A stretch of DNA of 49,215 bases, from contig QPMI01000463.1 of NCBI GenBank assembly GCA_004431415.1, forward strand, positions 1-49,215. Direction: 5' to 3'. This DNA comes from Cyanophora paradoxa CCMP329 (Eukaryota; Plantae; Glaucophyta). Position numbers and translations under genes: made by a program. Below, in pieces: positions 5,527 through 29,719 of the stretch. The notes under the pieces are model-generated. The model saw only the letters and a list, made by a program, of their open reading frames with translations, did no database searches and was not told where the DNA came from. How positions within the stretch are numbered: the first letter of the stretch is position 1; each line of letters starts with the position of its first letter.

Positions 5527-5532
5527 GAGGAG
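5527..5532 (+). repeat. Left target-site duplication GAGGAG
   Basis: Immediately precedes the left TIR; identical to 29714..29719. Confidence 0.9.
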
Positions 5533-5901
5533 GCTCGCATGCAGGTAACCCCCACCAATTGCGCGCAAAAAAGCCGACCATGTCAATAAGCAGGTCTTAC
5601 ATCTCCCACAATTCTCAGTGCGAAAATCATAAATTCGCACTGAGCCACACTATATTTTTCAAACATCTAACCCTTCCTTACTGAAACCAATCACGAAACC
5701 CTTTAATTCTCCATTTTTCTAATTCCTTACCATTCTCAGTAAGCCCTTTAACCCTCCCCCAATCTCTCAGTAAGGACAGTAAGACCCTTATTTTTACGAA
5801 ATGTTCCCGATCGTTTCCAAACTGTTTTCAGTTACCCAAATTGAAAAATCCAGGTAGACCCCACCAATTAAACAAGTGATCCCCACTTAAAGACTTCCCG
5901 A

Positions 5902-6240
5902 ATGTATAATGTAACAATGGCAAGCAATCAAGTAAATCTACCTGAGACTAAGCGGTGCAATGTTTGCGACAAGGTAAAACCGGCATCGAGTTATGCATTG
6001 CAAAAGCGTAGCTCAGGGAATGTACTTTTGAATTGGAGATGCAAAGTTTGCGACCGAGACTATCACAATTACCTTTATCATTTCGTGTTAAAAACGCGTC
6101 CGAAGATCGAAGTACAATCGAAGATATGCTCGCACTGCAAGATTGAGAAGCTTGCAAGTGAGTTTAATAAAAGACAAAGAACGAAGGATGGTCTCAACTA
6201 TCAATGCCGAGAGTGTTATAGCAAAACTCGTAAGAGTTAA
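5902..6240 (+). CDS. Zinc-finger protein with two CxxC..CxxC modules, encoded inside the TIR
   Basis: KRCNVCDKVK..WRCKVC and KICSHCKIEK..F..DGLNYQCREC. This pattern resembles zinc ribbons found N-terminal to phage/NCLDV endonucleases. Confidence 0.75.
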   Translation: MYNVTMASNQVNLPETKRCNVCDKVKPASSYALQKRSSGNVLLNWRCKVCDRDYHNYLYHFVLKTRPKIEVQSKICSHCKIEKLASEFNKRQRTKDGLNYQCRECYSKTRKS

Positions 6241-6321
6241 ACCGAATTTCATTGTATATTTTTTAAAGCAAGTTTATGCATGAGCAAGCATGCCGAAAAT
6301 GCCCACCTGCACAAACTTGCG

Positions 6322-6387
6322 ACTTCAATCGAAATGTACTTCAATCGAAATGTACTTCAATCGAAATGTACGAATCGAAATGTACGA
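6322..6387. repeat. 16-bp tandem repeat (acttcaatcgaaatgt) x3 plus one variant, inside the TIR (mirrored at ~28859..28924)
   Basis: Read directly from the sequence. Confidence 0.85.
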
Positions 6388-6513
6388 TTAGCATATTTAC
6401 GACAAAGTACGACGATAGACCACGTTAAAATACACTCGCGCCCCGCCCACTATGCAAGATACATGCCTTTCTTATGCATGATCTATGAAAAATAACAATA
6501 AACCCATCTCTCT

Positions 6514-6777
6514 TTACATAGGAGCACTCACAGGAATTTCGCTTGCCTTTCGAACAGTCCCCCGATTAAACGCTTGCTCTACAATCGCTTCCTTTGTGAG
6601 TGGAATCGGAATTCCAGCACCAATACACGATTTAACTTCTTTGTCCACGATTTCATCCACAGCGATTCTCGCCCTATTATGAGCTACATTATCAATCCAT
6701 TCCTGAACAGAGAAGGCACAGTATTCCATTCCCAGTTTCTCGGTATCAGTTAGAACGACTTGGTAGATGTTCGACAT
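6514..6777 (-). CDS. Small phage-like protein downstream of the C1q fibre (putative fibre partner or chaperone)
   Basis: LTDTEKLGMEY..VQEWIDNVAHNRARIAVDEIV. From memory this resembles small proteins that follow C1q-tipped tail fibres in aquatic tailed phages. It lies 9 bp downstream of the fibre gene on the same strand. Confidence 0.7.
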   Translation of the reverse strand: MSNIYQVVLTDTEKLGMEYCAFSVQEWIDNVAHNRARIAVDEIVDKEVKSCIGAGIPIPLTKEAIVEQAFNRGTVRKASEIPVSAPM

Positions 6778-6786
6778 TCTTTTACT

Positions 6787-7809
6787 TTATGTAACAGAAA
6801 TTAATTCGCCCGACCAGAAACAATGGGCATTTGTTGTATAAGCATGTAGTGCTCCTGAGACCAATCTTATCTTTATGGAATCCCCCGCTACCAGATTAAT
6901 CATGCATTGCATTGAAATAGGTCTGAAAGAACTTGATGTTGAAGTCCCCCCAGAATACCCAAGCATTTCAACCCCTGCATATGTCCCGCTACCATTGATA
7001 AACCACTGAACAGCGGTGTCTGCTGTATTTCCAGTTGTTCCATTAAATATAAATCTATAAACACCACTCACAGGTGCTGTAAAGACACCACTCGAAAATG
7101 AAGTCGATGTAGCCCATGAATACCCCCATGCAGTGACATCCCCTGCTGTTGTAAGGGAAGCATTCAAACCATAACAAAACCGTGGATGGTTTGGAGTTGA
7201 AAGATATGAATTTGTCCCATTAATAGTGAACCCATTCCAGTTATAAGTGGTGCTATTGCTTGGTCTTGTGTAACTTGAAGCAAAGGTAGAAGCAATATTT
7301 GCACCGCCTCTCTTAATTACAAAATTATCACTTGCACCCACAGTATCAATTGAATTCGTTTTGATTCCACCACTTGCTGTTAGGAGCCCAGTAAATCCAC
7401 CAGTGGTTGCATTCACAGCCCCATAAGAAGTTGCTGTCACTGTCCCATTCACACTCAGTCCAGTCCCAATCCATGCCCCGCCACTGTAAACTTGGAAAGC
7501 CGCCGAATTCCTATCAGCCGGATTAAAAGCCGTTTTGGAATCCTGTTGACCTTCATATAGATTTTCTTTGGTGACCAGCCCCGAAGAGATTGCGGGTCGA
7601 TTCGATACGATCATTTGAGTAGCTTTAACGAGTCCATCAATCTTGTCAGCTCTGAGTTCTTTGACTCTGAGTATGCTTTGGTCATTAAAAGAATCGGTTT
7701 TCGCTGTCTCAGTCGAAGGGTGGCTCGGAGATAAATCATAGACTGTGTGTTGGACATTATGGACAGCACTTGCACTCAAAGAAAACACAGGCGTGAATAC
7801 AGTTGACAT
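6787..7809 (-). CDS. Fibre / receptor-binding protein with a C-terminal C1q/TNF-like head
   Basis: G/S/T-rich shaft followed by the C1q signature GVFTAPVSGVYRF...LVAGDSIKI...FWSGELI. Confidence 0.8.
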   Translation of the reverse strand: MSTVFTPVFSLSASAVHNVQHTVYDLSPSHPSTETAKTDSFNDQSILRVKELRADKIDGLVKATQMIVSNRPAISSGLVTKENLYEGQQDSKTAFNPADRNSAAFQVYSGGAWIGTGLSVNGTVTATSYGAVNATTGGFTGLLTASGGIKTNSIDTVGASDNFVIKRGGANIASTFASSYTRPSNSTTYNWNGFTINGTNSYLSTPNHPRFCYGLNASLTTAGDVTAWGYSWATSTSFSSGVFTAPVSGVYRFIFNGTTGNTADTAVQWFINGSGTYAGVEMLGYSGGTSTSSSFRPISMQCMINLVAGDSIKIRLVSGALHAYTTNAHCFWSGELISVT

Positions 7810-7830
7810 CTTTTGATTGTTCTTTACTTA

Positions 7831-9294
7831 TTAAGCGAGAATATTATTGTTTTGGAGAGGTCCGACAGCAATCCAATGGAGTTTAAGGGTGCGATTGCTT
7901 TGGATCACACTGTTATAATTGATGTCCGAGTAACAAGTGAATATCGCAATCCAAGTGAATTTATTTTTGAACCCAATGCGATTTCCGAACTGATATTCAG
8001 CAGAGAGATATATGCTATTGGTGAAATCGACACTTGTTAAAATAATACTGTTTTCGAGAGTAGCAGTAATTACAGGATCACTAAAAAATGGGGTTGAGAA
8101 TGTAACGGTTCCCGATACTGTGGTAAAATCCCCTTTGTAATAGACTCCGGCAGGAATTACTACATCCATTGTCCCTTGTTGCACATATGCATTTGGATTC
8201 ACATAACTACCGAAATTCGTGAGCAACTCGATGCTGTGATTGTGAGTAGGTGGCGAAGTGGGTGTGTTAATTAAATCGTCATAGTTCCCGCTTGTAGCCA
8301 CAGCATGCAAGTTTGGTGTATTAACTAAATCTGTATAGCTCCCACTTGTAGCCACAGCATGCAAGGTCGGTGCAATAGGGGTGTTAGTTAAATCGTTGTA
8401 GTCACCACTTGTGGCAACAGCATGCAAATTCGGCTTAGTAAATAACCTATCCCATGTCCCATTGAAAGGAAGTGTAGATTCTGATATAATTACACTTTGA
8501 TCAATCCAACGAGGTATATAGCTTGTGAAATCGGGAGTTCCTACTAAATCATAGTAATTTCCTGTGTATGCTACACTACTCCAAGTCGGCTTCTGAATGA
8601 TATCACTCCACTTCCCACTAAATCCCGCCGGCACATCTGTAAGCTCCTTATAGCTCACCTTTTGCTTCGGTATAGACAGCTCAATGGGTGAGAATGCACC
8701 AGAAAGGCGATTTTCAGAGGTGAAATACATAAGACTTTGACTGTTAGGGAACTCATCCACGAGATTAAAGGTGAAATTCGTGGGCAATTCGAGTCGACTA
8801 ATTGGGGTGTTGTCGCCCAATATAAATTCGGCACCTGTATGCACGACCGGGTTTCTTTGGATATACATATTTGATGCACCTATTACAGGTGCCACAATAG
8901 GCACATCCGAATTAACGAGATTGCAAGTGATGGAGAAAATGGTTTTGGGGGCAAACAGATTGCAATCAAAGGTTATCGTGGCGGGATCAATAGTAGGATC
9001 GACATTTGAACAGATCTGAAACATCCACCCACCCACACAGTTGCAATTTAGATTTCGAAAGGCTGTGCCTGCCATCGCATCCACATAGCCGATCCCATTT
9101 GCAATGTCATAGATGTGACCAAACTCGTAACCGAAAAGGTCATTCCATAGGTTAGAAGCCATAGCTCCCATCACATAGCCTTTTAGATTAACAATTAGGT
9201 CATTGGATTCACTGGGTATATTGGCATGGGTTATATAAAATTGATTATCCAATACAGCATTCTTTACTGTCGTTTCTACTATGGGTTCCGTCAT
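7831..9294 (-). CDS. Fibre protein with phage-tail-fibre-like repeats
   Basis: Three LHAVATSG(D/S/N)YxDLxNTP repeats plus degenerate copies; C-terminal GTVTFSTPFFSDPVITAT...LHWIAVG motif (gp53-like / H-type-lectin-like). Confidence 0.75.
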   Translation of the reverse strand: MTEPIVETTVKNAVLDNQFYITHANIPSESNDLIVNLKGYVMGAMASNLWNDLFGYEFGHIYDIANGIGYVDAMAGTAFRNLNCNCVGGWMFQICSNVDPTIDPATITFDCNLFAPKTIFSITCNLVNSDVPIVAPVIGASNMYIQRNPVVHTGAEFILGDNTPISRLELPTNFTFNLVDEFPNSQSLMYFTSENRLSGAFSPIELSIPKQKVSYKELTDVPAGFSGKWSDIIQKPTWSSVAYTGNYYDLVGTPDFTSYIPRWIDQSVIISESTLPFNGTWDRLFTKPNLHAVATSGDYNDLTNTPIAPTLHAVATSGSYTDLVNTPNLHAVATSGNYDDLINTPTSPPTHNHSIELLTNFGSYVNPNAYVQQGTMDVVIPAGVYYKGDFTTVSGTVTFSTPFFSDPVITATLENSIILTSVDFTNSIYLSAEYQFGNRIGFKNKFTWIAIFTCYSDINYNSVIQSNRTLKLHWIAVGPLQNNNILA

Positions 9295-9412: not shown

Positions 9413-12400
9413 TTATTGATTCAGCCATTCGTTCTGCTCGCGATTTTTGGGTGCTGCCCTACTTGCTGGTGGTTGATCAGTTCTCACTACACTAAGACCA
9501 TGCCCCTCGGCTGACCTCACCTCTAAGCCCACATCTCCTTCGGCTGTTTGGGTCACATTCATTTCTGGCACCGAGTATTTATTACCTGCTCCTGCAATGG
9601 TTCTGTCTATGCAAGCACAACATAGAGCTCGGAATTTGTATGCAAGCACAAGTCCAAGAGCACCGAGAATTGGCAAGAGAATTAGAAGCACTAACGTCCC
9701 GGGATCCATTCCTGGCGATCCGACTGGATTTGTAGGATTACTGGGATTATTAGGTGTCGTGTTTGGATCTGGATCAGTTGTAGGGGGATCTTTTGAATCG
9801 GGATCTGGGTTAGGCTGGTTCGGATTGGGATCGTTAGGTGGCGGCTCTGTCGACCCTGCTAATGATGTCGGCGCTGTGTATGCATTTGCAAACACGATGG
9901 GAGCCGTCGCTGGATTTCCTGTGGAGGATCCTGAGATTGCACCATAGGTATCTGACAGATATTTATATAATTCCTTTGTCACAGGCGGATTGCTCACAGA
10001 TCGACACACCCAAATATTGCATGTGGTATCATACACTGTGTCCCTGATAAAGGGCGGTAGAGCTGTCCCACTGAATGACTCAAAGAATCCATTTCGCGAT
10101 AGCAATCGATGCCCTGCATCACAGTTCCCTCCCTCGAAATATTTGGTAGCCGAAATTGCACCTTGCACATAAATATTGCAAGTCGAGTGCATTCCAATGT
10201 TATTTAGGTTGGGAGTGTATCTGTCATCGAGCCGGACAGTGCACACCCATGGGGAAGCGGTTTTTATATATTTCTTATCGCCCACTTCGATTACATCTGT
10301 ATTTGGGTGGCTGTCAAGCTGAGTCCAAACAGCATCATATCTGAAAGTGTAATAAACTAAGAGCCCATCAGTAGAGGATGTGAAAGCAAAGAAGGTCATA
10401 AAGTCCGTGGATCCAAAGAAGTGAGCATTGGTCGATGTTAGGGTGACTTTGGGATAGCTCATGTCCACAGTCTCAGAGGGATATGGAATATAAGAGGTGT
10501 AATTGCGATTGAACAGGTAATAGTAAAATCCATCTGAGACATTCGAGTGAGTGGGCAAGGTGACTGTTAAGGTCTTACTGCGATTTTCAAACGTGTTCTG
10601 TATGACAATGTTGCAAGTATTAATATATCGAGAATCGAAAAAGTAATTATTTGTGACACTGTTATTGATCAGAGTCGCATTGGTTCCATTAAATACGAAA
10701 TTCTGCCCATTTATTCTCGTAGTATGGAGGTCGGTCACATCGAGAGGATACCTTATTTTCAAGCGGTCTTCGGGGTCAAATCGCGGAATAGTTCCTGTTG
10801 CCTTCCAATTGATAGTAAAGGGAGGAGAAAGGGACACAGGTGGGATCGCTGAAAGATTAAATTTCGCAAAATACAACCCAACAGGATATGCTGTAAGAGC
10901 ATATGTCACTGTTGCATTTCCGACAAGTGTGAAGCCGGTGGTTGTTATGTTAGTTGCAACAAATGGGGAGTAGCCGGCTGGTGCATTGTTAATAGAGGTG
11001 GTCGACCCATTATTGACCACATACAAATTCGTGTCTGTTATTTCAATAGTAGGAGGGGAAACAAAAGGTGTCTCAAATGTGAAATTAAAATTCGCTGGAA
11101 CCGCTGCAAGGTATCTATATGTTGTTGCTGATATCTCGGATGCCTGGAATACTTTGCTTCCCCTCTGCACTACATTACTGGTGTCTTTCACATTGTGATA
11201 GGATATACTGGGAGTCGGGGAGAGCACCAACGAAATAGCATCTGGTAAATCAGACTTTGTAATATACAGCTCTTTAAGATACTCCTTTTTGAAAGGGGCG
11301 GTCAGATCTCCAATAGTAGCCGATGACCCTGCGACCACAATATTACAGGTGTTTGCATTCAAAGTATAAACTGTGTTCCACCTCAAAGAATTCGCCCCAA
11401 GATCGAAATTCTGTGAGAAGGGAACGATATTGCTACCTTGTAAATCTCGGTAAACCTTCACTCTGGGTTTGCTATCGAATTCAGGGGTGATATAATTGAT
11501 GTTAAGAGTGAAACTAATAGTAGCTTCGGAACTCAATGAGTTGTTTCGGATGATAAGTAAATTGTATGTCTCGTTAATGACAAACGAAACCTGAAACCCT
11601 GTGGAGGTGACATTTTGGATAAATGCTTTATTAGATTCATTATTGTTATAGATAGGATTATAATAAGTAGTGTGATCCACCAATGAAACAGTGGGTATAC
11701 TCTCCAAATCTGTGACACTCAACTGATCCCAAGTGAATGTATATGTAGGTTTGCCTACATAAGCGACATAGACCCCATTTGCGAGCTGCTGAGGGTATCC
11801 CTCGACAGTGTAGGTCTCAGTTCGCGAAACTGAGCGGGAAAGGTTGCTATTAAAGTCGTTGTAGCTGATCAGAGCTCTCTCATCAGTGGGTATTTGATTG
11901 GGTCGGAGTGAGTGATTTAATGGAAGGATTAAATTGGAGGCAAACATGGAAACTCCATGCATCTCTGACCATCTCAGATTCGATAAACCAACTCGGTATG
12001 TGTTATCAGTCGCGGGGTAAATGTTCCTTTTCGATAGAATATGGGCTAAGGTAATTGCAAGCGCTCCATCTGCTGCAAACAGTGCATTAATTTCGGACTG
12101 CAAAGCCGCGATCTCGGTTGTGTGGGTCGTGAGGGTTCCATCCTGGCTCGAATCTTTGGTGTTCTTGTTCCTCTCGAACTCCAAAAACGCCTTCACAATG
12201 TCCTTGCCCAAAAGATCGTTTATATTGTCTCTGGTAATGTAAACATGATCTGTTCTCAGTGCCTGTTTCTCTGTGGTAAATGCCGGAATTTCTTCTGCAA
12301 ATGATATAGTCGTTTTATCAAGTGCTAAGGATCTCACATTCGGAGCATTGGCGCCAATTATATCCACAACGTTCCCATTTTCGACAATTTCTAAGGTCGG

Positions 12401-13051
12401 TTTCGCGGAGTCTAATGTGAAAACGCCCTCTGTAATTTGGGGAACCGTGTCGCTCTTCTGAATAATAAAGGAATCAAGATTTAGATTGCATGTGGCGACA
12501 TTGGTGGCGAAGAAAGACTCTGAATTAAATGAGTTTACGTTCAGAGTGTCCGTGGTGATGTTGCTTGCTGCAATGTTGCTCGTCGTCAAATTACCTGCTG
12601 AGAGATCATGGACGACCTCTACCTTTGTTTTCCGCGTGGATACTCCCGCTATAAGCGTGCTATTATCCACGATTCTCATAGCTGCATTTTGGAAACCGCT
12701 CTCATCTTGAATGAAGAAGTTTAAGCGACCTCTATCGAAAGCTTTTGGGATGTTCCTCCGATTATATCGCACCGTTTTCGGTAACTGACGAGTCGCCTGG
12801 ATGCTGGCAACTCTGTTTCGCTCGTTGTCATCAAGTAAAAAGTCGATTGCAAGCTTGTGATCCCCCTTCTCGACGTTCATTAACTGCAAAGCTGCGGGTC
12901 TGCTCGGTGTTCCACTGACTGGATCTTCGCGGTCTGCATTGTAATTTATTCTGATAGACCCGCGAATTTCGGTGTTTACCTGGTCAGTGTCCTCTATCTG
13001 CGTGGTCGAATTAATTACTCGTGCATCGGGTCTCGGATTCAGGAACGACAT
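9413..13051 (-). CDS. Large (~1212 aa) fibre/structural protein with a C-terminal Pro/Asn/Asp-rich linker and predicted transmembrane helix
   Basis: Likely start MSFLNPRP at 13051, after an AT-rich leader. Repeats NIYPATDNTYRVGLSNLRW and NIVPFSQNFDLGANSLRW; recurrent TCNI motif; FTFETPFVSPPTI..NITTTGF..INWKATG domain; hydrophobic segment LVLLILLPILGALGLVLAY. Confidence 0.75.
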   Translation of the reverse strand: MSFLNPRPDARVINSTTQIEDTDQVNTEIRGSIRINYNADREDPVSGTPSRPAALQLMNVEKGDHKLAIDFLLDDNERNRVASIQATRQLPKTVRYNRRNIPKAFDRGRLNFFIQDESGFQNAAMRIVDNSTLIAGVSTRKTKVEVVHDLSAGNLTTSNIAASNITTDTLNVNSFNSESFFATNVATCNLNLDSFIIQKSDTVPQITEGVFTLDSAKPTLEIVENGNVVDIIGANAPNVRSLALDKTTISFAEEIPAFTTEKQALRTDHVYITRDNINDLLGKDIVKAFLEFERNKNTKDSSQDGTLTTHTTEIAALQSEINALFAADGALAITLAHILSKRNIYPATDNTYRVGLSNLRWSEMHGVSMFASNLILPLNHSLRPNQIPTDERALISYNDFNSNLSRSVSRTETYTVEGYPQQLANGVYVAYVGKPTYTFTWDQLSVTDLESIPTVSLVDHTTYYNPIYNNNESNKAFIQNVTSTGFQVSFVINETYNLLIIRNNSLSSEATISFTLNINYITPEFDSKPRVKVYRDLQGSNIVPFSQNFDLGANSLRWNTVYTLNANTCNIVVAGSSATIGDLTAPFKKEYLKELYITKSDLPDAISLVLSPTPSISYHNVKDTSNVVQRGSKVFQASEISATTYRYLAAVPANFNFTFETPFVSPPTIEITDTNLYVVNNGSTTSINNAPAGYSPFVATNITTTGFTLVGNATVTYALTAYPVGLYFAKFNLSAIPPVSLSPPFTINWKATGTIPRFDPEDRLKIRYPLDVTDLHTTRINGQNFVFNGTNATLINNSVTNNYFFDSRYINTCNIVIQNTFENRSKTLTVTLPTHSNVSDGFYYYLFNRNYTSYIPYPSETVDMSYPKVTLTSTNAHFFGSTDFMTFFAFTSSTDGLLVYYTFRYDAVWTQLDSHPNTDVIEVGDKKYIKTASPWVCTVRLDDRYTPNLNNIGMHSTCNIYVQGAISATKYFEGGNCDAGHRLLSRNGFFESFSGTALPPFIRDTVYDTTCNIWVCRSVSNPPVTKELYKYLSDTYGAISGSSTGNPATAPIVFANAYTAPTSLAGSTEPPPNDPNPNQPNPDPDSKDPPTTDPDPNTTPNNPSNPTNPVGSPGMDPGTLVLLILLPILGALGLVLAYKFRALCCACIDRTIAGAGNKYSVPEMNVTQTAEGDVGLEVRSAEGHGLSVVRTDQPPASRAAPKNREQNEWLNQ

Positions 13052-13094: not shown

Positions 13095-14586
13095 ATGAAG
13101 ACCGTTCTCGCTTTGAGTGGAGGGGGTCGCGCGGAATAATCGAGGCTGCTATACTGGCACAGATTGAAGCCCAAACAGGTAAACGAATCCAACAGCTATT
13201 CGACTGCTTTGCGGGAACATCCACAGGTGGATTAATCGCGCTCCTATTAAATATCAAGGGAACCGATGGAGCCCCAAAATATACTGCTACTGATATTCTG
13301 GCGCTCTACAAAGCGAAGCTACCGCTGATTTTCGCAAATCCACGAGTGCTTACATCGATTGTACAGCGCCCAAAGTACGAAGCAACTAACTTAGAAGCGG
13401 TGGCTCTCGAACTCTGCGGCTCAGCGACCATGGCGGATCTCTATAAACCCACCATCGTGACTGCGTTCGACACGGTCTTAATGTCCCCCGTTTTTATTTC
13501 AAGCAACGATGAAGATATTAATGGGATGCTTGTGCGCGATGCTGCAAGGGCTACCTCGGCTGCTCCGACCTATTTCGAGCCGAAACAAGTCACAGTCGCC
13601 GGAAGAACATACTGTTTAATCGATGGTTGCATGAGCGGAAATAATTCGCCCGGGGTTTGTGGCTACACATTCGCCCGCACTTTATTCGGAAACTCTTGCG
13701 AGGAGGAGCTTATAGTGGTCTCGATTACGGCGGGTCACGTCCAAGACTCTGATAAGGCGACAGCTGGATATTCGTACGACACCATGAAAAATTGGGGGAT
13801 CGTGCAATGGATGCTAAGCGCGACAGGATCGCCAATTCTCAGCATGTTCTTAGAGTCGAGCGATCTAAACGCCCACGTAAAGCTACTGGAACTTTTACCC
13901 AGAAACGATGATCAGAATTACGATCGCTACTATAAGCTGAGCGTTCCTTTACCGAAAGATAAAATGACCCTCGATACTATCACAACGAGTCACCTGCAAT
14001 ATTTGGAAACGGAAGCGCTCGCCTTTGTTTCCGCACAGCAAACGTATTTTAATGCGATGTATTCAGTGCTGACCATGAATATCTCAGAGGGCGATGTTCC
14101 CATAATTAATCTGTCCGGGTGCACAGATGTAAGCGCACCCCGGAGTCTAACTGGGTGCCGCTCGATAATAGCGCCTTTATTGCGGAATTCGGCACAGCCT
14201 CCAATGCCCGCTGGTCGAATGCCACGGGGTGGGTGGGCTTTACTAACCCGCCGCAAGGTAGTAGGTCGGGAGGCAATTATTTACGCATCGATTTTCCGCG
14301 TCTGTTTATGCTTTCCTCTATAAAAATGAAGCCGGCTGCGAATGGAAACTACATTAAAACGTTTGAGATCGATTACCAGCTTACTCCCGGAGTTTCTGCG
14401 CTTGTTACATACACAGAAGCCGGCGCGACGAGAGTGTTTACCAATGCGAATCAAATAGCCGGAAGTGCGGATCCCGACGAACATTTCTTAGCGAACCCGA
14501 GATCTGTGAGAACCCTCGTAATCTGGGTGCTCTCGACAAACGTAGCTTCGGCATGCCGAATTGATTTCGAGGGCTATTACGTGTGA
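13095..14586 (+). CDS. Patatin-like phospholipase fused to an F5/8 type C (discoidin) domain; two 1-nt frameshifts (~13125, ~14140) reflect either sequencing error or pseudogenisation
   Basis: ATG at 13095 gives MKTVLALSGGG/xRGIIEAAIL..FDCFAGTSTGGLIA (glycine loop plus GxSxG), then ARATSAAPTYF and LIDG. The next frame encodes YLRIDF..NYIKTFEIDY..RVF..NPRSVRTL..CRIDFEG (discoidin). Adding one base to each of the G5 and C4 runs gives a single ~497-aa ORF. Confidence 0.8.
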
Positions 14587-14592: not shown

Positions 14593-15438
14593 TTAATCCG
14601 TGATCACTTCGAGCTGGAACGAGAATGAGAGACCGTTTATATCCGCAACAGAGCCCCTCCATTTTCGAAGCGATATTGTGAGGCGATCTAAATCGAGTTG
14701 CGATGTGACATTTACGAAAGGGATGCTTGCGCTCGGTTCGTGGTAAAAGGAATATCTACCAAAGTCCGAGTTCATCTGAATTCGCAATAGATAGGAGTCA
14801 TCGAAATTGTTCTGTCTCCCAGTAACCGCTGCGAATTTGGTAAACGGGCGGAGCTCTTCGATATCAAGGTAAATATATGGAATCGCATTAAAGTCGACCA
14901 TTTTCGGGCATATAATCGCGTAGCGACTCGGGTAATCTCTGAGTGGAACCGTCACTGGTTCTGGTGTGCTGGCGTAAACCACTCCGGGTTCTATGCCGAG
15001 ACAATCACAGAGCTCCTGGTCTGAGGACTCTAATGTAAACGGGCTGTTTGGAGACGAGAACACGAAGCGGTTTGTGGACAGAGCGAGAGAATAGGAAACC
15101 GGGAAGACACCGAGTGGATTAAAAGAACCGCCCGCAAATCCGAGTAAAGCATCACTGTTTAAAGCTCTCTCTTTCGGATATCGTTCGTTATCAGCATCAA
15201 CGTAATAATAATCGTTTACGCTGGGAATCGGTGCTATCATTTTGGATGCGGGGATTACTGTGGGCTCTTCGTTTAGAAGCGTTATAGTAATTGTCTGATC
15301 GGGCGGAACAACATAAGAGCTATTAGGAATCTCAGCGGATAGCACACGAAATCGTCGTACATTATTAAGGCGCGTTTTCAAGTGCAGCACGCCGTTTTCA
15401 AGGTCTCTACTGTCGCAATTTATTGTTATTCTTTTCAT
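14593..15438 (-). CDS. Minor capsid (penton-like) protein 1
   Basis: INCDSRD..LNNVRRFRVLSAEIPNSSY N-terminus; PYIYLDIEEL; LDRLTISL..DINGLSFSFQLEV C-terminus, typical of PLV/NCLDV single-jelly-roll mCPs. Confidence 0.8.
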   Translation of the reverse strand: MKRITINCDSRDLENGVLHLKTRLNNVRRFRVLSAEIPNSSYVVPPDQTITITLLNEEPTVIPASKMIAPIPSVNDYYYVDADNERYPKERALNSDALLGFAGGSFNPLGVFPVSYSLALSTNRFVFSSPNSPFTLESSDQELCDCLGIEPGVVYASTPEPVTVPLRDYPSRYAIICPKMVDFNAIPYIYLDIEELRPFTKFAAVTGRQNNFDDSYLLRIQMNSDFGRYSFYHEPSASIPFVNVTSQLDLDRLTISLRKWRGSVADINGLSFSFQLEVITD

Positions 15439-20694: not shown

Positions 20695-23600
20695 ATGCCG
20701 CGCGCAGCCAACAGAATCGCTAACAATGTTCGGGAGGAGATTATCGGATACATTATGCAGGGATTGAGTCAGGATTTGCTAACCGAAGAACAGGCGCATT
20801 GGGCGATGCACAACACAATGAATCGGAAGCCCAAGCTCCAAACGCTGATCGACATTCGGGATACTCTGAATGGAATCATTAATCCCCGCGTTTTCCGCAG
20901 GGCAGAGCGGAAAGAAAAGCGTGCCGCTCGCACCCAAGTTAATATAGAAAAGCAGAAGCAAAAAGAACAAGAGGCTAAGCGTTTACAGCGCTTCGATCGC
21001 AAGCAAGAACAGAAACGAGCGAAAGAAGCGAAACTCGAAGCGAAGCAGCAGAGAGGTAAAGTAAAAGCGGTAGAGGATGCGATAAAACGCAATATTCTCG
21101 ACCCAATCGCCGCATACGATCCGGAAACTCTCGCAACAATTACGTTCAAGCTATGGGGACCTGGATCCGGTGCTCGGTCGACGGAGGTAATTGTTATTCC
21201 CGGAATTCCCGAATTAAATATACCAGACAGAACCTTTGTCACCTACCGCAATATAAGAGAGACAGTTTCGGTGAGGGTGTTGAGAAACTTTGCTCTGGCA
21301 AAAATCGATAGAGTGTATGGAATTCTCACCGCTCAAAATCGTTATTATTCGGAAGAGAGAGATTCAATCTTCGATTTACTCGAAAACTACGATGAATTGA
21401 AGATTCGTCTGGGAACTTTCGGACAAGCATACGAGATGTTCTTCTTTAAGACACCACCAACCGAGGAACAGAAAAAACTACGCAAAGGTTTCGATGATTT
21501 TGGCGGCAGTGTCGATGATGCCTTTATAACTGTTCATGAGATCGCGATCGATGGGGACGAAGGTGTCGAAGATGACGGAGCCGGTGCTATTCCTGGAAAT
21601 CGCTATGCGTTTCTGGATGAGGAGCTCATGGACAGTATGCGATGCACCGCGATTATGAGCAAATTCACAGACTATACATTAAATCCAAACGCGTCTGAGT
21701 TCGAAGATGTTATTGAGCTTCCCAAATCATCGACATCTAACGCTTGCGGCTATGATATGATCATCTCCACATGGGGAGCGTCCATTAAGAAGTGTCAGGA
21801 GGCGCCAAAACCGCGATATACTGACTTAACTATGTCGTACGACGGTCTCTATAAATTCTTTCACGGTCGCGAACGCACACCTGGCGACTCTCTGGCTCTC
21901 ACCCTCCGCCATATCGAGAAATTCTGTAAGAGAATTCAGACAGGCTTCCGCGTCTTTGATGTCGACGGTAAGTTAATATACAAATTCGCGGCGGAATCAA
22001 TTAACAAAAACATCTTTCCCCGCAATATTCACTTTATGATTCACAACAAGCACATCTATATATTCAACGATAACATCAAGTCGCTCGAAATGCGCATGGC
22101 AAAGATGGAGGTCGAAGAGCTCGATAATCATGTTCCTAAGTCCAACTCTTCGTTAGCACTCTATAAAATTCCGACGTGTCTTACTCACGATATCTTCGCG
22201 CACACATCCAAGGATTTGTTAAAGATCACGCAACTTAAACTATCGCCTGACGAGCGCAGTTTCATCCGCATTCTTTATACTGGGCGCGAAGGTCTGGAAG
22301 GTCTTCTATTTACGTTCCTGAAAATGCGATATGAGCCCGCAGTGAAGCTAACACCATCGAAACAGATCGACAGCATCACATTCAAAGCTAATGGCTCCAT
22401 GTTCTCTATCAAAGATCCACGCACAACAGACCACTTTATTGAGCAAGATTTCGAAACAGAGGAGTATTATAATAAGGTCTGTGAAATCGGTAAGGGGTTC
22501 CGCGAGTCGCTACTAAATGCGACGAATATCTCACATTACAGCCCGAACATGCGCGAAATTCTCACGCACTACAAGCGATCCGCACTTAGCGGCTATTTCT
22601 ATAAGCCAAACCCGAAAGCCACCTACACAGCCGTCGATATGGCGAAGTGCTACCCTTCGATACTGAAAGGCATGCAATATCTTCCGAAGTACAATGTATT
22701 CGATGACTTCGTTCCCTTTAAAGCGGGAAGCGATATTCTCGAATACGCGATTTACTACGTGCGTGTAGTTGCGTTTGAGAGAGAGCAAGCGACTTTCGCC
22801 GACGATGAGGACATTGATTATGATGCCGCCATGTCTCGCAAGATTGATGGAATCGAAATTATTCTGGATCGCGCATTTTCCGTGAGTGGTCGCTGTTATA
22901 ATTTCATGACAGGCTACACTCTCTCCATGCATTGGGCGGACGTAAAGGACAAGATAGAGATTATCGCGGTCGCGGAGCCTTCGCATTTGGTGCCCAATAC
23001 GTCGATCGCTGAGATGCAAAAAGTGCTATCAAGCGACATTCAAACCACAGATAAGAAGCACATTTTAGTGAAAGAGATCGGAATGCTCGGCAAATTCCAA
23101 GACTCGCAAACATCCACGAAAATGTTCTACAACCGTGCCGAGGCTGAGAGGTTCGCCCAAGAATGCGGAGGAACAGTAGAGGTGTTTACTTTCAATCCTA
23201 AGAATTCGAAACGTGTCAAAACTCTTAGCGAATTCGAAGGTCACATCTATTTCGTTAAGATCAGCTCCCACCGCGAGCTCGTTAACGGATTCCTTCCTAT
23301 CCACTTTCATATTTACGATCGTAACCGTGCTAATATGTTCGCGCAATACAAGCGCCTGACAGCGCGCGGGCACAAGGTTGCCGGGATCAGAACGGATTGC
23401 CTATATATCGAAGGTTCATGGACAAGTAAGAAAGAGTTCGACCGAAATGCGTTTGAGAACATGGGCAAATTCAGCTATATTCCCGGGAAAAGATGCCCTG
23501 AGAATGCACTCCGCCCACCACGGGGTGTAACTCTCGAATTTCAGGATCCCGAGACACTCATTAACCGGTTCTCGCTGAGGGACGAATTTAATCCTGAGTG

Positions 23601-25005
23601 CTTTAATTGGGTTGCGGAGCTCCACAATCGTATGCTTGTCCTTGCTGACATGCCCGGAAGTGGAAAGTCGACACTCGGTATTAACTGTTTCGCATCTCAA
23701 AAGTCGAATTGCTTAGTTATTTGCCCCTATAACAAACAGTGCGCAGAGCTGAGAGACTCTCTCAAAGTCCGCGGAATCGGAAATATTACCGTTCGTACTT
23801 TGTATAATGTTCTCGGGATCCGTGTCTCAAATGATCAGACCTACGAAGAGGCTATGAGCGAGAAAGACCAGAGGGCGTTTGTCTCCGAGTTCAGTCACAT
23901 TATGTTCGACGAGATATTTGCGTATTCTGTAAAAGACCTCGCTAAGATCAAGTCGTTTATCGATCGCTATCCGGATATCAAATATTTGGCTAATGGCGAT
24001 ACCTATCAAAATGAACCGATTAATGATGAGCTATCGGTTTCTGATCGCAAGGGCTACTATAAGCGCGCTGTGCAGAGCATGTTCCCTAACGTCCTGAGTC
24101 TTCGCATTAACAAGCGGCACAAGAAGGAGACAGACCGTGAATTAATTCGGGCGATTAAAGAGGATCTCTTCGAGAACGGACTCGAAGCCTCACAGATCAT
24201 CTCGAAATACGGCTTACCGACAATTAATGATCTAAGCGCTATTCCCGACGGCTACTTTGGCATCGCTTACAGAAACGAAATGACCTTAGCCTATAACAAA
24301 CTGATGCACGATAGACGAAAAGTAAATATCCCGACCGTAGAGGTCAACGGCATCAAATTCTACAAGGGTTTGGAAGTCGTTTGTCGCAGGTATCTACGCA
24401 TTTCGCGGTCTGAGGGTGAGTCTATTAATGCATACACAAATTACACCTATCGGATCACCAAGATCACCAAGCAAATGGTCACATTAACTGACGTTTTCGA
24501 TGGCGTCACGTTCGAGGTTCCGTGCGCGATGTTAGAACATTTTTCTCTCCCTTATGCAGGAACAGGTCATTCAACGCAAGGTCTCACACTTGATTCGGGC
24601 ATTGTCATTTGTGAGGCTACGTTCCGCTATACCACTCGCGAATGGTTCTATACCGCGCTCACTCGTAACCGCGATCTGTCTACTGTGCTGATTTATACAC
24701 CGATTCACAGATTCCAAGGAAAGAGCGACTACATCGAATATCTGAAAACGAAGATCCGCGGTTATAAATGCCAGGATCAGCGTGCCGGGCGCGATTTCGA
24801 CGAGGCGGATTATATTACGCCGGAGTGGATATTAGAGCGCAAAAAGCAACAGAAGGGCGCCTGTGCGCTCTGTTCCCTTCCTATTCCGACTGAGCCACAA
24901 GATCCAAATTACAAGCTCGTCGTGGATCGCATTAACAACAGGCGCCCACACCTTCAAGACAATTGCCAGCTCGTGCATCACGGGTGCAATTGCAGCAAAA
25001 AATAA
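20695..25005 (+). CDS. Multidomain replication protein: putative vOTU-like protease + family-B DNA polymerase + SF1 helicase + C-terminal HNH-like domain
   Basis: PolB motifs A (AVDMAKCYPSIL), B (KKHILVKEIGMLGK) and C (GIRTDCLYI). SF1 motifs DMPGSGKS, MFDEIF, GDTYQNEP, GHSTQGLT and YTALTR. C-terminus CALC..VDRINNRRPHLQDNCQLVHHGCN. N-terminal SNACG...IHFMIHNKHIY. Confidence 0.85.
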   Translation: MPRAANRIANNVREEIIGYIMQGLSQDLLTEEQAHWAMHNTMNRKPKLQTLIDIRDTLNGIINPRVFRRAERKEKRAARTQVNIEKQKQKEQEAKRLQRFDRKQEQKRAKEAKLEAKQQRGKVKAVEDAIKRNILDPIAAYDPETLATITFKLWGPGSGARSTEVIVIPGIPELNIPDRTFVTYRNIRETVSVRVLRNFALAKIDRVYGILTAQNRYYSEERDSIFDLLENYDELKIRLGTFGQAYEMFFFKTPPTEEQKKLRKGFDDFGGSVDDAFITVHEIAIDGDEGVEDDGAGAIPGNRYAFLDEELMDSMRCTAIMSKFTDYTLNPNASEFEDVIELPKSSTSNACGYDMIISTWGASIKKCQEAPKPRYTDLTMSYDGLYKFFHGRERTPGDSLALTLRHIEKFCKRIQTGFRVFDVDGKLIYKFAAESINKNIFPRNIHFMIHNKHIYIFNDNIKSLEMRMAKMEVEELDNHVPKSNSSLALYKIPTCLTHDIFAHTSKDLLKITQLKLSPDERSFIRILYTGREGLEGLLFTFLKMRYEPAVKLTPSKQIDSITFKANGSMFSIKDPRTTDHFIEQDFETEEYYNKVCEIGKGFRESLLNATNISHYSPNMREILTHYKRSALSGYFYKPNPKATYTAVDMAKCYPSILKGMQYLPKYNVFDDFVPFKAGSDILEYAIYYVRVVAFEREQATFADDEDIDYDAAMSRKIDGIEIILDRAFSVSGRCYNFMTGYTLSMHWADVKDKIEIIAVAEPSHLVPNTSIAEMQKVLSSDIQTTDKKHILVKEIGMLGKFQDSQTSTKMFYNRAEAERFAQECGGTVEVFTFNPKNSKRVKTLSEFEGHIYFVKISSHRELVNGFLPIHFHIYDRNRANMFAQYKRLTARGHKVAGIRTDCLYIEGSWTSKKEFDRNAFENMGKFSYIPGKRCPENALRPPRGVTLEFQDPETLINRFSLRDEFNPECFNWVAELHNRMLVLADMPGSGKSTLGINCFASQKSNCLVICPYNKQCAELRDSLKVRGIGNITVRTLYNVLGIRVSNDQTYEEAMSEKDQRAFVSEFSHIMFDEIFAYSVKDLAKIKSFIDRYPDIKYLANGDTYQNEPINDELSVSDRKGYYKRAVQSMFPNVLSLRINKRHKKETDRELIRAIKEDLFENGLEASQIISKYGLPTINDLSAIPDGYFGIAYRNEMTLAYNKLMHDRRKVNIPTVEVNGIKFYKGLEVVCRRYLRISRSEGESINAYTNYTYRITKITKQMVTLTDVFDGVTFEVPCAMLEHFSLPYAGTGHSTQGLTLDSGIVICEATFRYTTREWFYTALTRNRDLSTVLIYTPIHRFQGKSDYIEYLKTKIRGYKCQDQRAGRDFDEADYITPEWILERKKQQKGACALCSLPIPTEPQDPNYKLVVDRINNRRPHLQDNCQLVHHGCNCSKK

Positions 25006-25023: not shown

Positions 25024-26406
25024 ATGTCACGGATCGTCAGAAGGGTAGCGGGAGAGGAGACAGAGACCACCATACTACCTATCGCGGTTCCTGAAACTGA
25101 GCAAGTCCCCCAAAAAATTACAAAACGCCAAGCAAAATCAAATTTATTAGGAGATGTTCCTTTTAGCATTGCTAACCCGTCCTCTAAGATCGTGCGCCGC
25201 ATGTATGACCCAAAGACAGGTTTTAAGAACCCATCGGCATTGTACGAAGAGCTGAGAAAAGAGGACAAGAGCCTCACATTGAAAGAAGTGCAAGATGTCG
25301 CAGCGAAACAAGAATTTATGCAGATCAACAAGAAGCCCCCAGCACCGACCCAAACAGCTTTTATTCCCATCACAGCCCCGCCGTGGTGCTATCAAGCGGA
25401 TCTCATCTTTTATCTCTCATATGGCAATTATAATTCCGGCTACATTGCAGTCCTTACTCTCATTGAGATGACGAGCCGAAAAGCATATGCCAAGAAGTTA
25501 AAGAATAAGGAGGGCGCAAGTGTTGCCGCCGCTTTTGCGGAGATGCTTGCAGAGCTCCCGGCTCCGATGATTCGATTGGAGACAGATAACGGTTCGGAAT
25601 TCATCGCGAAGGAGTTTCAGGAGGTCGTAAAAAATAATGGAATAGAGCACCGCTTTAAACAGGTCGGAGATCACACTTCGCTGGGAATTATGAATCGCTT
25701 TCATTTGACCCTAAAAACGATGATAAACAACTACTGTGTCGCTTATAACACTGTGCGATTTATGGACAAGCTGGACGACTTCGTTTTCAATTACAATAAC
25801 ACCATTCACAGAACCATAGGAATGAAGCCCGCAGATGTTAAGCTCTCAGATATGGAGCGGATCCGAGCGGCTATTATTTCGAAAAAGAACACAATCGTCA
25901 AGGATATATTCAGCGACTTTAAACCTGGGCTCCACGTCCGTGTATTATTGCCGAGATCAAAGTTTGATAAAGGAGCAACACAAAGGTATAGCCGAGAGGT
26001 CTACAAAATTGCGGGAAGGAGAGGAAACGCGATAGAGGTGCAAGATGCAGCCGGGAACGTAATGCCGAAGCTTTTTAAGCCGCACGAATTGCAGATCATT
26101 ACAGAGGTCGAGGCTGTGGTGGAACCATCAGGCAACGCTATTTTAGCGGCTGATGTAGAGGCAGCTTCGATCCGGCAGGTTCAAAAAGAAGGCATAGATG
26201 TCGCCGCAAGTGTTCCGAAAGGGGCTTTATTGGAAGATCGCGCAGAAAAGACAAAGAGGGCGCTGAGGGAGCTCGCTAAATTAACGATTGCAGGAACTGA
26301 GAAGCTCTCAGAGGTAAACAGTCAGAGGTGGTATAAATCATTCAAGAATCAGAGCGCAAGCTACACAGCCCCTACTACGCGCATTCTTCGGTCATCTCGT
26401 TCATAA
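25024..26406 (+). CDS. Retroviral-like (rve) integrase of Polinton type
   Basis: YQADLIF (D1), LETDNGSEF (D2), GIMNRFHLTLK (E position is N), YNNTIHRTIGMKP, SH3-like GLHVRV..FDKG..YSREVYKI; no chromodomain seen. Confidence 0.92.
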   Translation: MSRIVRRVAGEETETTILPIAVPETEQVPQKITKRQAKSNLLGDVPFSIANPSSKIVRRMYDPKTGFKNPSALYEELRKEDKSLTLKEVQDVAAKQEFMQINKKPPAPTQTAFIPITAPPWCYQADLIFYLSYGNYNSGYIAVLTLIEMTSRKAYAKKLKNKEGASVAAAFAEMLAELPAPMIRLETDNGSEFIAKEFQEVVKNNGIEHRFKQVGDHTSLGIMNRFHLTLKTMINNYCVAYNTVRFMDKLDDFVFNYNNTIHRTIGMKPADVKLSDMERIRAAIISKKNTIVKDIFSDFKPGLHVRVLLPRSKFDKGATQRYSREVYKIAGRRGNAIEVQDAAGNVMPKLFKPHELQIITEVEAVVEPSGNAILAADVEAASIRQVQKEGIDVAASVPKGALLEDRAEKTKRALRELAKLTIAGTEKLSEVNSQRWYKSFKNQSASYTAPTTRILRSSRS

Positions 26407-26445: not shown

Positions 26446-26760
26446 ATGGAGGGTGAAAAGCATTTCGTTGACATTCCGTATGATAAAAAAGACGTTGCGA
26501 AATCCCTCGGTGGAAAGTGGGATCGTGAGAATTCATGCTGGTATGTCACGAAGAAAGATCACCCCCTATGCTCTCAGTTCAAAACTCTAAGCTATGAGCA
26601 AGTGTATCAAAGAAACGTGAAGGTTTACCTCGATATTCCTTATGAATTTAAGGATCAAGCGAAGGCTGAGAGAGCCCGCTGGGATCCCGTCATGCGATGC
26701 TGGTATGTCATGGGTCTCGATCACCCGCTAATGGGCAAGTTTCCGATCAAGGAACATTAA
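26446..26760 (+). CDS. Tandem DUF5710-like domain protein
   Basis: Two repeats: FVDIPYDKKDVAKSLGGKWDRENSCWYV and YLDIPYEFKDQAKAERARWDPVMRCWYV. Confidence 0.85.
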   Translation: MEGEKHFVDIPYDKKDVAKSLGGKWDRENSCWYVTKKDHPLCSQFKTLSYEQVYQRNVKVYLDIPYEFKDQAKAERARWDPVMRCWYVMGLDHPLMGKFPIKEH

Positions 26761-26785: not shown

Positions 26786-27178
26786 TTATGAAATTGGGAA
26801 CCTTTGCTCGACCTGTAAGTCCCACTTTCGAACTTTCAGCCTTTCTTGTATGAGTTCGTTAATGTCCCGTGCTATACCCATTGTCTTCGCTTCGGCATTT
26901 GTGCCGCATGTAAATATATCGATTGCTAATAGCCCCTGGTCGCTATAAGAGTGAGCCGTCGCATGCGACTCATCTAATAAAAAGCCAATCGCGAAACCGG
27001 GAGGGGAATTAGAGCCATCGAAAATGCATGTGTGCTGGTGCACGATGCGCATCTGGCGATCTGTGATATATTGCGATAGGTTCGCTGTGATCCACTCGGC
27101 GCATGCCTCCGGGGACTCGGTGAACGGGTCGGTTATATAGTCAAGCATAACGTGGTAGCCGCGGTATCGGGAATCCAT
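26786..27178 (-). CDS. speD: Pyruvoyl-dependent S-adenosylmethionine decarboxylase proenzyme (prokaryotic class 1B type)
   Basis: GYHVMLDY N-terminus, LLDESH self-cleavage site, HSY, AIDIFTCG; 130 aa. Confidence 0.85.
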   Translation of the reverse strand: MDSRYRGYHVMLDYITDPFTESPEACAEWITANLSQYITDRQMRIVHQHTCIFDGSNSPPGFAIGFLLDESHATAHSYSDQGLLAIDIFTCGTNAEAKTMGIARDINELIQERLKVRKWDLQVEQRFPIS

Positions 27179-27565: not shown

Positions 27566-27644
27566 GTCGGGACTCGGGACTCGGGACTCGGGACTCGGAA
27601 CTCGGGACTCCGGGACTCGGGAGTCGGGACTCGGGACTCGGGAT
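27566..27644. repeat. Heptamer tandem repeat (cgggact)n, ~11 units
   Basis: Read directly from the sequence. Confidence 0.9.
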
Positions 27645-28080
27645 TCCAACTTCGCAACTTGCAACTTAAAAAATGCAACTGGCAAGTATCATAGTATAGG
27701 CTTAGTAGGCTACCGCCGACCGCCGACCGCCGACTCGGCGCCGAGTTGGCTCAGAGGCTTAGAGCCCCGCGATCGCATTTTTTAAAAATATGCATTTTAC
27801 ACATTATTTATTGAGCCTATGAAACTTATATGGACGTGCTAGCCTCGTTAAGACGGTCACGGCGCTATTTTCAGTTTTGCAGCCTGGCAGGGTGATGAGC
27901 TGGTGATGAGATACAAGCGCTCGACGGTTTGTAGTGCGGGTTGTTTTTCAGTTTTGTATATATGTGTCGTATATATACACGTCAAAATGTTTGCGACTCG
28001 CGCGCCGAGTCGCTGAGTCACGATCATCGCATCACATCACTGATGATGACGCGCACGGTCATACGTATATACATCAGCTG

Positions 28081-28231
28081 CCCTATCAGCTGATTTATCA
28101 CACTACGATCAGCCCCTATCAGCTGATTTATCACACTACGATCAGCCCTATCAGCTGATTTATCACACTACGATCAGCCCTATCAGCTGATTTATCACAC
28201 TACGATCAGCCCTATCAGCTGATTTATCACA
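28081..28231. repeat. 32-bp tandem array A (ccctatcagctgatttatcacactacgatcag) x4 plus a partial unit
   Basis: Read directly; each unit contains the palindrome ATCAGCTGAT. Confidence 0.92.
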
Positions 28232-28294
28232 TTACCGGCGATGCTGTCCGGTGATGCTATCGCCCGGGTGATACTATACAGCGATACTATCCAC

Positions 28295-28500
28295 CGATAC
28301 TATCGCCCTGAGGTCATACTATGGGGCGATACTATCGCCCTGAGGTCATACTATGGGGCGATACTATCGCCCTGAGGTCATACTATGGGGCGATACTATC
28401 GCCCTGAGGTCATACTATGGGGCGATACTATCGCCCTGAGGTCATACTATGGGGCGATACTATCGCCCTGAGGTTATACTATGGGGCGATACTATCGCCC
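28295..28500. repeat. 32-bp tandem array B (cgatactatcgccctgaggtcatactatgggg) x6 plus a partial unit
   Basis: Read directly; unit junctions form GGGCGATA-C-TATCGCCC inverted repeats. Confidence 0.92.
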
Positions 28501-28772
28501 AATCAATCGAATTTAGAGCCTCAGCTGATTGGTCGACATGTTTGTATATATATATGTGGCATGCCATACATTTCCGGAGTCGCCGTGATGTGATGACCCC
28601 GAATATGTCTGTGACGCCGGTATATATATGTATATGTCGTCATATGCGAAAAAACATAAAAAAACAAAAAATTCAAAGTTGCGCGGGATCACATACACGG
28701 AGGTTCGGACATATATACGAAATATATACATGACTAAATCGTTATTGTTTTCATAGAACTCGCATGTAGTTT

Positions 28773-29713
28773 GCATGTATCTTGCATAGTGGGCGGGGCG
28801 CGAGTCGCGAGTGTATTTTAACGTGGTCTATCGTCGTACTTTGTCGTAAATATGCTAATCGTACATTTCGATTCGTACATTTCGATTGAAGTACATTTCG
28901 ATTGAAGTACATTTCGATTGAAGTCGCAAGTTTGTGCAGGTGGGCATTTTCGGCATGCTTGCTCATGCATAAACTTGCTTTAAAAAATATACAATGAAAT
29001 TCGGTTTAACTCTTACGAGTTTTGCTATAACACTCTCGGCATTGATAGTTGAGACCATCCTTCGTTCTTTGTCTTTTATTAAACTCACTTGCAAGCTTCT
29101 CAATCTTGCAGTGCGAGCATATCTTCGATTGTACTTCGATCTTCGGACGCGTTTTTAACACGAAATGATAAAGGTAATTGTGATAGTCTCGGTCGCAAAC
29201 TTTGCATCTCCAATTCAAAAGTACATTCCCTGAGCTACGCTTTTGCAATGCATAACTCGATGCCGGTTTTACCTTGTCGCAAACATTGCACCGCTTAGTC
29301 TCAGGTAGATTTACTTGATTGCTTGCCATTGTTACATTATACATTCGGGAAGTCTTTAAGTGGGGATCACTTGTTTAATTGGTGGGGTCTACCTGGATTT
29401 TTCAATTTGGGTAACTGAAAACAGTTTGGAAACGATCGGGAACATTTCGTAAAAATAAGGGTCTTACTGTCCTTACTGAGAGATTGGGGGAGGGTTAAAG
29501 GGCTTACTGAGAATGGTAAGGAATTAGAAAAATGGAGAATTAAAGGGTTTCGTGATTGGTTTCAGTAAGGAAGGGTTAGATGTTTGAAAAATATAGTGTG
29601 GCTCAGTGCGAATTTATGATTTTCGCACTGAGAATTGTGGGAGATGTAAGACCTGCTTATTGACATGGTCGGCTTTTTTGCGCGCAATTGGTGGGGGTTA
29701 CCTGCATGCGAGC
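28773..29713 (-). repeat. Right terminal inverted repeat (941 bp)
   Basis: Reverse complement of 5533..6466; ends ...CCTGCATGCGAGC, followed by the TSD. Confidence 0.95.
29006..29344 (-). CDS. Second, identical copy of the TIR-encoded zinc-finger protein
   Basis: Translation identical to 5902..6240. Confidence 0.75.
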   Translation of the reverse strand: MYNVTMASNQVNLPETKRCNVCDKVKPASSYALQKRSSGNVLLNWRCKVCDRDYHNYLYHFVLKTRPKIEVQSKICSHCKIEKLASEFNKRQRTKDGLNYQCRECYSKTRKS

Positions 29714-29719
29714 GAGGAG
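29714..29719 (+). repeat. Right target-site duplication GAGGAG
   Basis: Identical to 5527..5532. Confidence 0.9.

Follow-up and report, generated by a model that had tools for sequence, protein, structure and literature searches.

A 24.2-kb endogenous Polinton-like virus in Cyanophora paradoxa, most likely a recent copy of a catalogued multi-copy family

Contig QPMI01000463.1 of the glaucophyte alga Cyanophora paradoxa CCMP329 (assembly GCA_004431415.1) carries, within the 49,215-nt stretch analysed here (positions 1 to 49,215, hereafter the window), an element of 24,181 bp (5533-29713). An earlier note, made from the sequence alone, had read it as an intact endogenous Polinton-like virus (PLV) of an undescribed and possibly reactivatable lineage. 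The locus raises the question of what kind of element this is, whether it is new, and whether this copy could still function. In all likelihood it is a complete 24.2-kb PLV genome that encodes a capsid module, an integrase and a replicase with a helicase, set between duplications of a 6-bp target site (TSDs), and most likely a recent copy of a multi-copy C. paradoxa family that has already been catalogued. Statements on published work below refer to the available parts of the texts and tables cited.

The ends of the element, including its terminal inverted repeats (TIRs), were located as follows.

5527..5532, no strand: left TSD, 6 bp (direct reading)
5533..6466, plus strand: left TIR, 908 bp perfect, with a 7-bp indel close to its inner edge
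28773..29713, minus strand: right TIR
29714..29719, no strand: right TSD (direct reading)

The TIR arms were identical across 908 bp from the terminus, followed by the 7-bp indel and a short further match inward. The TSD read GAGGAG on both sides, and the chance of a matching 6-mer pair at both ends is 3.8e-4. The termini were GC-rich (GCTCGC..GCGAGC) and not of the AG..CT type. Long TIRs with a 7-bp indel, a perfect TSD and unusual termini were all claimed by the earlier note and were found as described. A shifted element boundary yielding AG..CT termini did not fit the sequence. The GC content of the element was 45%, against 60-63% in its surroundings, and 84% of it was coding. Neither tRNA genes nor recognisable host genes were found in the window. 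The insertion lies within one copy (5507-5532) of a short host repeat, of which further copies lie downstream at 29743-29768 and 29863-29888.

The assignment to PLVs rests in part on the capsid module, in which one gene encodes a double jelly-roll (DJR) major capsid protein (MCP) near-identical to MCPs of published C. paradoxa endogenous viral elements (EVEs).

14593..15438, minus strand: probable minor capsid protein (penton) 1, paralogue of the adjacent ORF 15455..16381
15455..16381, plus strand: probable minor capsid protein (penton) 2, DUF5901 E 0.0016, under the cut-off
16429..17742, plus strand: DJR MCP, 437 aa, from its modelled fold
17801..18667, plus strand: A32-like packaging ATPase, Pox_A32 E 1.7e-10, 41.3 bits, cut-off 22.8

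The 437-aa ORF matched no capsid family in a Pfam scan, and PDB sequence searches with MCP profiles returned no capsid. A structure model built from an alignment of six sequences (pLDDT 61.9, pTM 0.69; the single-sequence model reached a pLDDT of only 32) indicates that the protein is of DJR fold. The best VIA match of the model was the PBCV-1 capsid (Z 25.7, rmsd 3.2, 329 aligned), and an iridovirus MCP was matched in Foldseek with E 2.6e-17. Scores were lower for the virophage capsids, with Z 13.7 for Sputnik (rmsd 4.6, 337 aligned) and Z 13.3 for mavirus (rmsd 5.1, 341 aligned), and the MCP is thus not of the virophage type (Virophaviricetes). The top BFVD structural match was G8DDE2, an entry without a name on which no paper was found. 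The nearest ESM Atlas clusters were capsids of the type found in nucleocytoplasmic large DNA viruses (NCLDV), with a score of 0.98.

Since the structure matches put NCLDV over virophage capsids, the element might group with small Nucleocytoviricota-related viruses (the Mriyavirus, Zora and Zephyr clusters) and not with PLVs proper; Zephyr viruses have been described with polB-SF1 fusions and lipases. We consider this improbable. Most Polinton and PLV MCPs resemble NCLDV more than virophage capsids (Bellas et al. 2023, PMC10120064), so the structural ranking does not discriminate and cannot place the element, and neither VLTF nor HUH endonuclease was matched among the 18 element ORFs scanned (Pfam, PHROGs).

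The MCP had few relatives in sequence. HMMER against 1.84 billion representative proteins detected only five matches at E <= 0.001, the second best being a Cyanophora paradoxa protein, and a word-based protein search gave one match each for MCP and ATPase. With almost no sequence relatives outside C. paradoxa, the MCP may represent a branch that present classifications of PLVs lack. Distant MCP relatives (P0004, P0005 and P0006/P0009; 27-31% identity) sit on environmental contigs of 3-15.5 kb.

Both probable pentons adjoin the MCP and are paralogues of each other (E 2e-7), the DUF5901 match being weak; on motif grounds we take the two ORFs to be probable pentons. Of the two pentons claimed earlier, what was found is a paralogous pair beside the MCP, with DUF5901 as its sole profile match. 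Two pentons have been reported for other PLVs.

PLVs have been defined by a genome of 14-40 kb with TIRs, and a 6-bp TSD if the rve integrase is present (PMC12220804). The element combines the DJR MCP, A32 ATPase, rve integrase, TIRs and 6-bp TSD at 24,181 bp, features of Polisuviricotina (PLVs in the broad sense), and the earlier reading as an endogenous PLV is borne out. A minor capsid protein of single jelly-roll fold also belongs to the features of this group, and the two probable pentons are candidates for it. Its enzymes are listed below.

20695..25005, plus strand: 1436-aa Tlr1-type replicase, SF1 helicase and C-terminal endonuclease VII/HNH, with by-eye motifs resembling vOTU and the PolB palm
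25024..26406, plus strand: rve integrase, Pfam rve E 8.4e-14, third catalytic position Asn
26446..26760, plus strand: DUF5710 protein, domain in two copies, E 4.9e-24
26786..27178, minus strand: S-adenosylmethionine decarboxylase (AdoMetDC), cleavage-site motif retained, Pfam E 2.2e-11
13095..14586, plus strand: patatin phospholipase, Patatin E 1.9e-16, C-terminus discoidin-like as judged by eye, reading frame interrupted at ~13125 and ~14137

AdoMetDC, the A32 ATPase, rve, patatin and DUF5710 all exceeded their Pfam cut-offs. The replicase matched a Dda-like helicase (E 2.8e-13) and endonuclease VII (E 9.3e-9) in PHROGs, and its C-terminal SF1 helicase with a homing nuclease in one 1436-aa protein fits the Tlr1 type. 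Replicases of this type also have a PolB palm with TPR1/TPR2 and a vOTU upstream of it. The vOTU-like motifs (residues 348-455) and PolB palm motifs (646-905) were seen by eye, against the consensus; profile searches gave them no support, and a PDB sequence search gave five weak matches with no polymerase among them. Of the Pol-helicase-HNH fusion claimed earlier, the helicase and nuclease parts are thus found in PHROGs and the PolB palm by eye only. Several ESM Atlas clusters resembled the replicase, one (1215 aa) in which 84% of the 64 members have HNH. The absence of matches in a word-based protein search with the replicase reflects low sensitivity, because the ESM Atlas holds such similar clusters.

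Two of these genes bear on whether this copy is functional. At 25693-25695 the integrase has Asn in the place of the catalytic Glu found in its retroviral counterparts, and the patatin gene is not one open frame; its discoidin-like part gave no match in a profile search. It is possible, though we rather doubt it, that a sister copy inserted this one in trans and that this one is already defective, its phospholipase broken and its integrase impaired. The two frame breaks and the Asn would both fit this. However, both breaks fall in homopolymer runs, contigs from three sequencing runs have a one-base indel relative to the window at the second break, similar one-base indels are present in the flanks, and false frameshifts are reported to be common in such assemblies. 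It is therefore plausible that the breaks are assembly errors. The earlier description as intact is overstated in view of patatin and the integrase; the morphogenesis module is open, and the patatin-discoidin gene stands as a patatin with two frame breaks. As read in this assembly, the breaks and the Asn count against reactivation of this copy.

Whether the element is a single insertion or one of a family was addressed by comparison with sequencing runs. Of 24 runs listed, 19, all from one organism, held at least half of the sampled words of the element, with no RNA run among these holders. Contigs of four DNA runs and of one possible RNA run (X20) were compared with the window; X20 contributed 13 short low-depth pieces, which are evidence neither way. 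In the four DNA runs the main element contigs diverged ~1-2.5% from the window and, among the pieces shown, exceeded flank contigs in depth by a factor of 3.0-5.7, which is a rough guide and not a copy number. Joints in the contigs revealed that fibre genes, TIR interiors and tandem arrays differ among copies. The element family is multi-copy and mosaic, and fibre parts have been exchanged in mosaic fashion among copies. The fibre-like genes are as follows.

6787..7809, minus strand: 340-aa fibre-like protein, C-terminal C1q (25.3 bits, cut-off 23.7), region differing among family members
7831..9294, minus strand: 487-aa fibre-like protein, 17-residue repeat in four copies, phrog_17509 E 1.2e-16
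9413..13051, minus strand: 1212-aa fibre/adhesin-like protein, H-lectin E 0.0045, under the cut-off

Within the C1q fibre gene, 6763-7348 had no differences to a flank-depth contig in three runs, while other copies differ there. Three fibres had been claimed; the C1q domain lies over its curated cut-off, and the other two proteins have no domain that does. At its C-terminal end the 1212-aa protein has a Pro/Asn-rich linker and then a hydrophobic 19-mer from residue 1119 (mean hydropathy 2.74). The 19-mer is a candidate anchor, and the protein is possibly a membrane-anchored surface protein rather than a plain fibre.

The flank contigs diverged 1.9-3.1% from the window. The runs therefore carry another haplotype and cannot test the junctions of this copy, though they do bear on the state of the site elsewhere. 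With the element taken out, the joined flanks have exactly 31 bases in common with the host repeat at 29743-29773, so that contigs of an empty site would have to break at 29744. Contigs of X2 and X13 start at 29744, and the left-flank contigs of the same runs end at 5528. In the contig at 29743 in X2, X13 and X16 the eight preceding letters match the left flank; in X1 there are 11 such letters, of which the last eight match. The insertion site is probably empty in another haplotype, and the insertion polymorphic.

The age of the insertion can be judged from its TIRs, assuming equal rates and an absence of gene conversion. No substitutions were found in 908 bp (95% bound 0.33%), against 2-3% between haplotypes, which suggests that the insertion is recent and probably much younger than the haplotype split.

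An assembly chimera, in which a repeat-family consensus was set between unrelated flanks, is very improbable. It would agree with the homopolymer-type indels in the window and with the lack of a junction-spanning contig among those shown, but the perfect duplication and the flanks apparently contiguous in the other haplotype are the expected traces of a true insertion, and this copy is 1-2.5% off the family majority instead of matching it.

The family might instead form no virions and spread as a self-synthesising transposon, with the youth of the copies as the only reason why the capsid genes are intact. Such intragenomic spread would agree with the several near-identical copies found in each genome and with a site that is probably empty in another haplotype. 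Pattern scans of viral contigs and metagenome contigs found no related locus, though such scans detect close relatives only. Set against this, the entire morphogenesis module is open, a relative with 60% MCP and 75% ATPase identity also keeps both frames open, and the swapping of fibre regions among copies suggests selection on attachment. We therefore regard a purely transposing family as unlikely.

Some points weigh against a complete and recently inserted PLV genome. Among the contigs shown none crosses either junction, so that the junctions of this copy rest on the window. The case for an empty site is indirect, being built on where contigs break and on 8-11 loose letters. This copy may be non-autonomous, given the patatin frameshifts and the Asn of the integrase. 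Finally, neither profiles nor structures gave a match for the putative PolB and pentons.

The earlier note had also taken the gene set to match no Polinton group that it recognised, and the lineage to be possibly undescribed. In Bellas et al. 2023 (PMC10120064), the available part of Table S2 holds two C. paradoxa EVE MCP entries near-identical to the window MCP, with two differences in ~240 aa and nine in 308 aa (97-99% identity, by eye), and the MCP falls in one of the 25%-identity clusters of the C. paradoxa EVE MCPs of that study. On protein matches the host is most likely C. paradoxa or a very close relative, and a fungal host (Allomyces) was dropped on comparison with these entries. Table S4 there gives a C. 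paradoxa total of 366 MCPs in two ‘new’ clusters (21 and 29 by column count) without a group name. The gene set is likewise in print. Among the 156 glaucophyte elements in Table S6 of Bulzu et al. 2025 (PMC12220804), A32 was counted in 139, minor capsid in 97, lipase in 89, rve in 85, AdoMetDC in 66, SF1 helicase in 34 and protease in none; the standard PLV capsid profile MCP-POL was counted in two and MCP-VIR in none. The same paper describes the discoidin-patatin fusion for rhizarian and glaucophyte PLVs, a C. paradoxa PLV with a repeat-plus-H-lectin fibre, and AdoMetDC in cryptophyte PLVs (e.g. 45/706). Replicases of the TP-vOTU-palm-SF1 type ending in HNH or GIY-YIG are widespread in PLVs (Krupovic et al. 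2024, PMC11071308). The gene set is therefore not without a match: AdoMetDC, lipase, rve, SF1 helicase and the lack of a protease are tabulated, and patatin-discoidin and pPolB-S1H-HNH have been described. The outcome that the earlier note had named as refuting it, a described PLV clade that takes in the MCP and gene order and already has this gene content, is largely provided by these published data.

What stands of the undescribed lineage is that its capsids lie outside the named groups in the literature examined. The available main text of Bellas et al. 2023 does not mention the Cyanophora capsid lineage, and neither does the available text of Bellas and Sommaruga 2026 (bioRxiv 10.64898/2026.06.19.733378), while that of Barth et al. 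2026 (10.64898/2026.10.13.758929) mentions one contig and otherwise not the lineage; the supplements of the latter two may place these capsids. The word ‘virus’ is absent from the available text of the C. paradoxa genome paper (PMC6704402). No dedicated description of a Cyanophora or glaucophyte virus group was found in a literature search that left most subscription journals outside. The element is thus a member of a catalogued but unnamed family. The capsid family and gene set are not new for C. paradoxa, although no paper was found that names or tests the group; new here are the probably young polymorphic insertion, the multi-copy mosaic family, the termini other than AG..CT, and a capsid with so few matches. 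A further-reaching proposal is tentative and on balance unlikely: that within Polisuviricotina the Cyanophora elements are a deep capsid lineage of their own, as yet without a name, which still moves between strains, swaps fibre tips among copies, has ends other than AG and possibly a DDN integrase, and can be induced to form particles. If true, a glaucophyte virus would be open to study in an axenic laboratory alga.

By analogy with its relatives, the PLV genome would have been inserted in linear form by an rve integrase, its own or that of a sister copy. The Tlr1-type protein would copy it from the TIR ends by protein priming. Its packaging, into a shell built from the MCP and both pentons, would fall to the A32 ATPase. 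The fibres and the phospholipase-lectin may help attachment and entry, and AdoMetDC may supply host polyamine synthesis. Viral genes of C. paradoxa are reported to be over-represented in the fraction that is methylated and silent, and its genome is reported to contain insertions of giant viruses (PMC12344493); this copy is likely silenced. Several other PLVs replicate only alongside a giant virus, and the odds seem about even that a virion phase here would have to be triggered, for example by co-infection with a giant virus. The locus adds one further well-bounded endogenous PLV to a known kind. C. paradoxa grows axenically (PMC12344493), and with a complete copy that is probably present in one strain and absent from another, virion formation and its trigger become testable.

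The remaining features of the element are small ORFs and non-coding arrays.

5902..6240, plus strand: 112-aa zinc-finger ORF in the left TIR, matching zinc-finger parts of endonuclease PHROGs, best E 4.6e-14
29006..29344, minus strand: mirror copy of the 112-aa zinc-finger ORF, in the right TIR
6514..6777, minus strand: 87-aa ORF without confident family (Pfam, PHROGs)
18670..19353, plus strand: 227-aa ORF without confident family (Pfam, PHROGs)
19558..19971, plus strand: 137-aa ORF without family (Pfam), 11-mer motif upstream
20096..20509, plus strand: 137-aa basic protein, AT-hook-like motifs, E 0.0034
27567..28500, no strand: non-coding tandem arrays of one 7-mer and two 32-mers, between AdoMetDC and the right TIR

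The 11-mer TATTTTCTCCG occurred at 19516, 20075, 20660 and 26420, which is 21-42 bases 5′ of four non-structural genes on the plus strand, the replicase among them, and was absent from the rest of the window (0.03 expected, for a motif chosen after being seen). It is a candidate early promoter. Other family members bypass the tandem arrays, with contig joints 27187->27805 and 27200->28748.

Downstream, a GC-rich element that is repeated occupies ~31022-49215. It has a gag-like ORF (34477-36588) bearing two CCHC knuckles, followed by long ORFs in which Pfam found no reverse transcriptase, integrase or recombinase. In its part 34110-36000, identity to run contigs was ~99.8%, and these contigs had about double the depth of the flanks. 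It is an unclassified mobile element.

Among known systems, the element shares long TIRs, a 6-bp TSD, rve, the A32 ATPase and the DJR capsid with Maverick-Polintons (Polintoviricetes, a class that also takes in the Gosseviruses). Unlike them, it has a helicase-fused replicase, GC-rich termini and no cysteine protease found; no adenain-type protease was matched among the 18 ORFs (Pfam, PHROGs), three short ones being without a family. Its termini do not show the AG/AGT..CT/ACT end motifs reported for vertebrate Mavericks (PMC8097293), for protist PLVs no survey of end motifs was found, and the published C. paradoxa MCP clusters carry no Mavpol or GKS1 label (PMC10120064). For Aquintoviricetes (the PgVV, TsV and Dino groups), the comparison at hand is the published count of only two MCP-POL matches in the 156 glaucophyte elements. 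The endogenous PLV of Oxyrrhis marina (PMC12721341) also has a ~1,500-aa fusion of polymerase and SF1 helicase, but there the helicase is N-terminal, an exonuclease is kept, and integration is by a tyrosine recombinase without a TSD. With Tlr1-type PLVs and transpovirons the element shares rve and a putative TP-vOTU-palm-SF1 replicase with an HNH/GIY-YIG end and the first Asp of motif C replaced. The likeness to Tlr1-type PLVs covers integrase and replicase and not the capsid lineage, with no Tlr6F match in the element, and transpovirons differ in lacking capsid genes. The closest likeness in content is to the published C. paradoxa EVEs, which have a near-identical MCP and also AdoMetDC, lipase, rve, SF1 helicase, A32 and patatin-discoidin fusion and no protease. 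Their published gene set, however, consists of totals over elements, whereas described here is a single element, complete and with both ends placed exactly, whose site is apparently empty in another haplotype.

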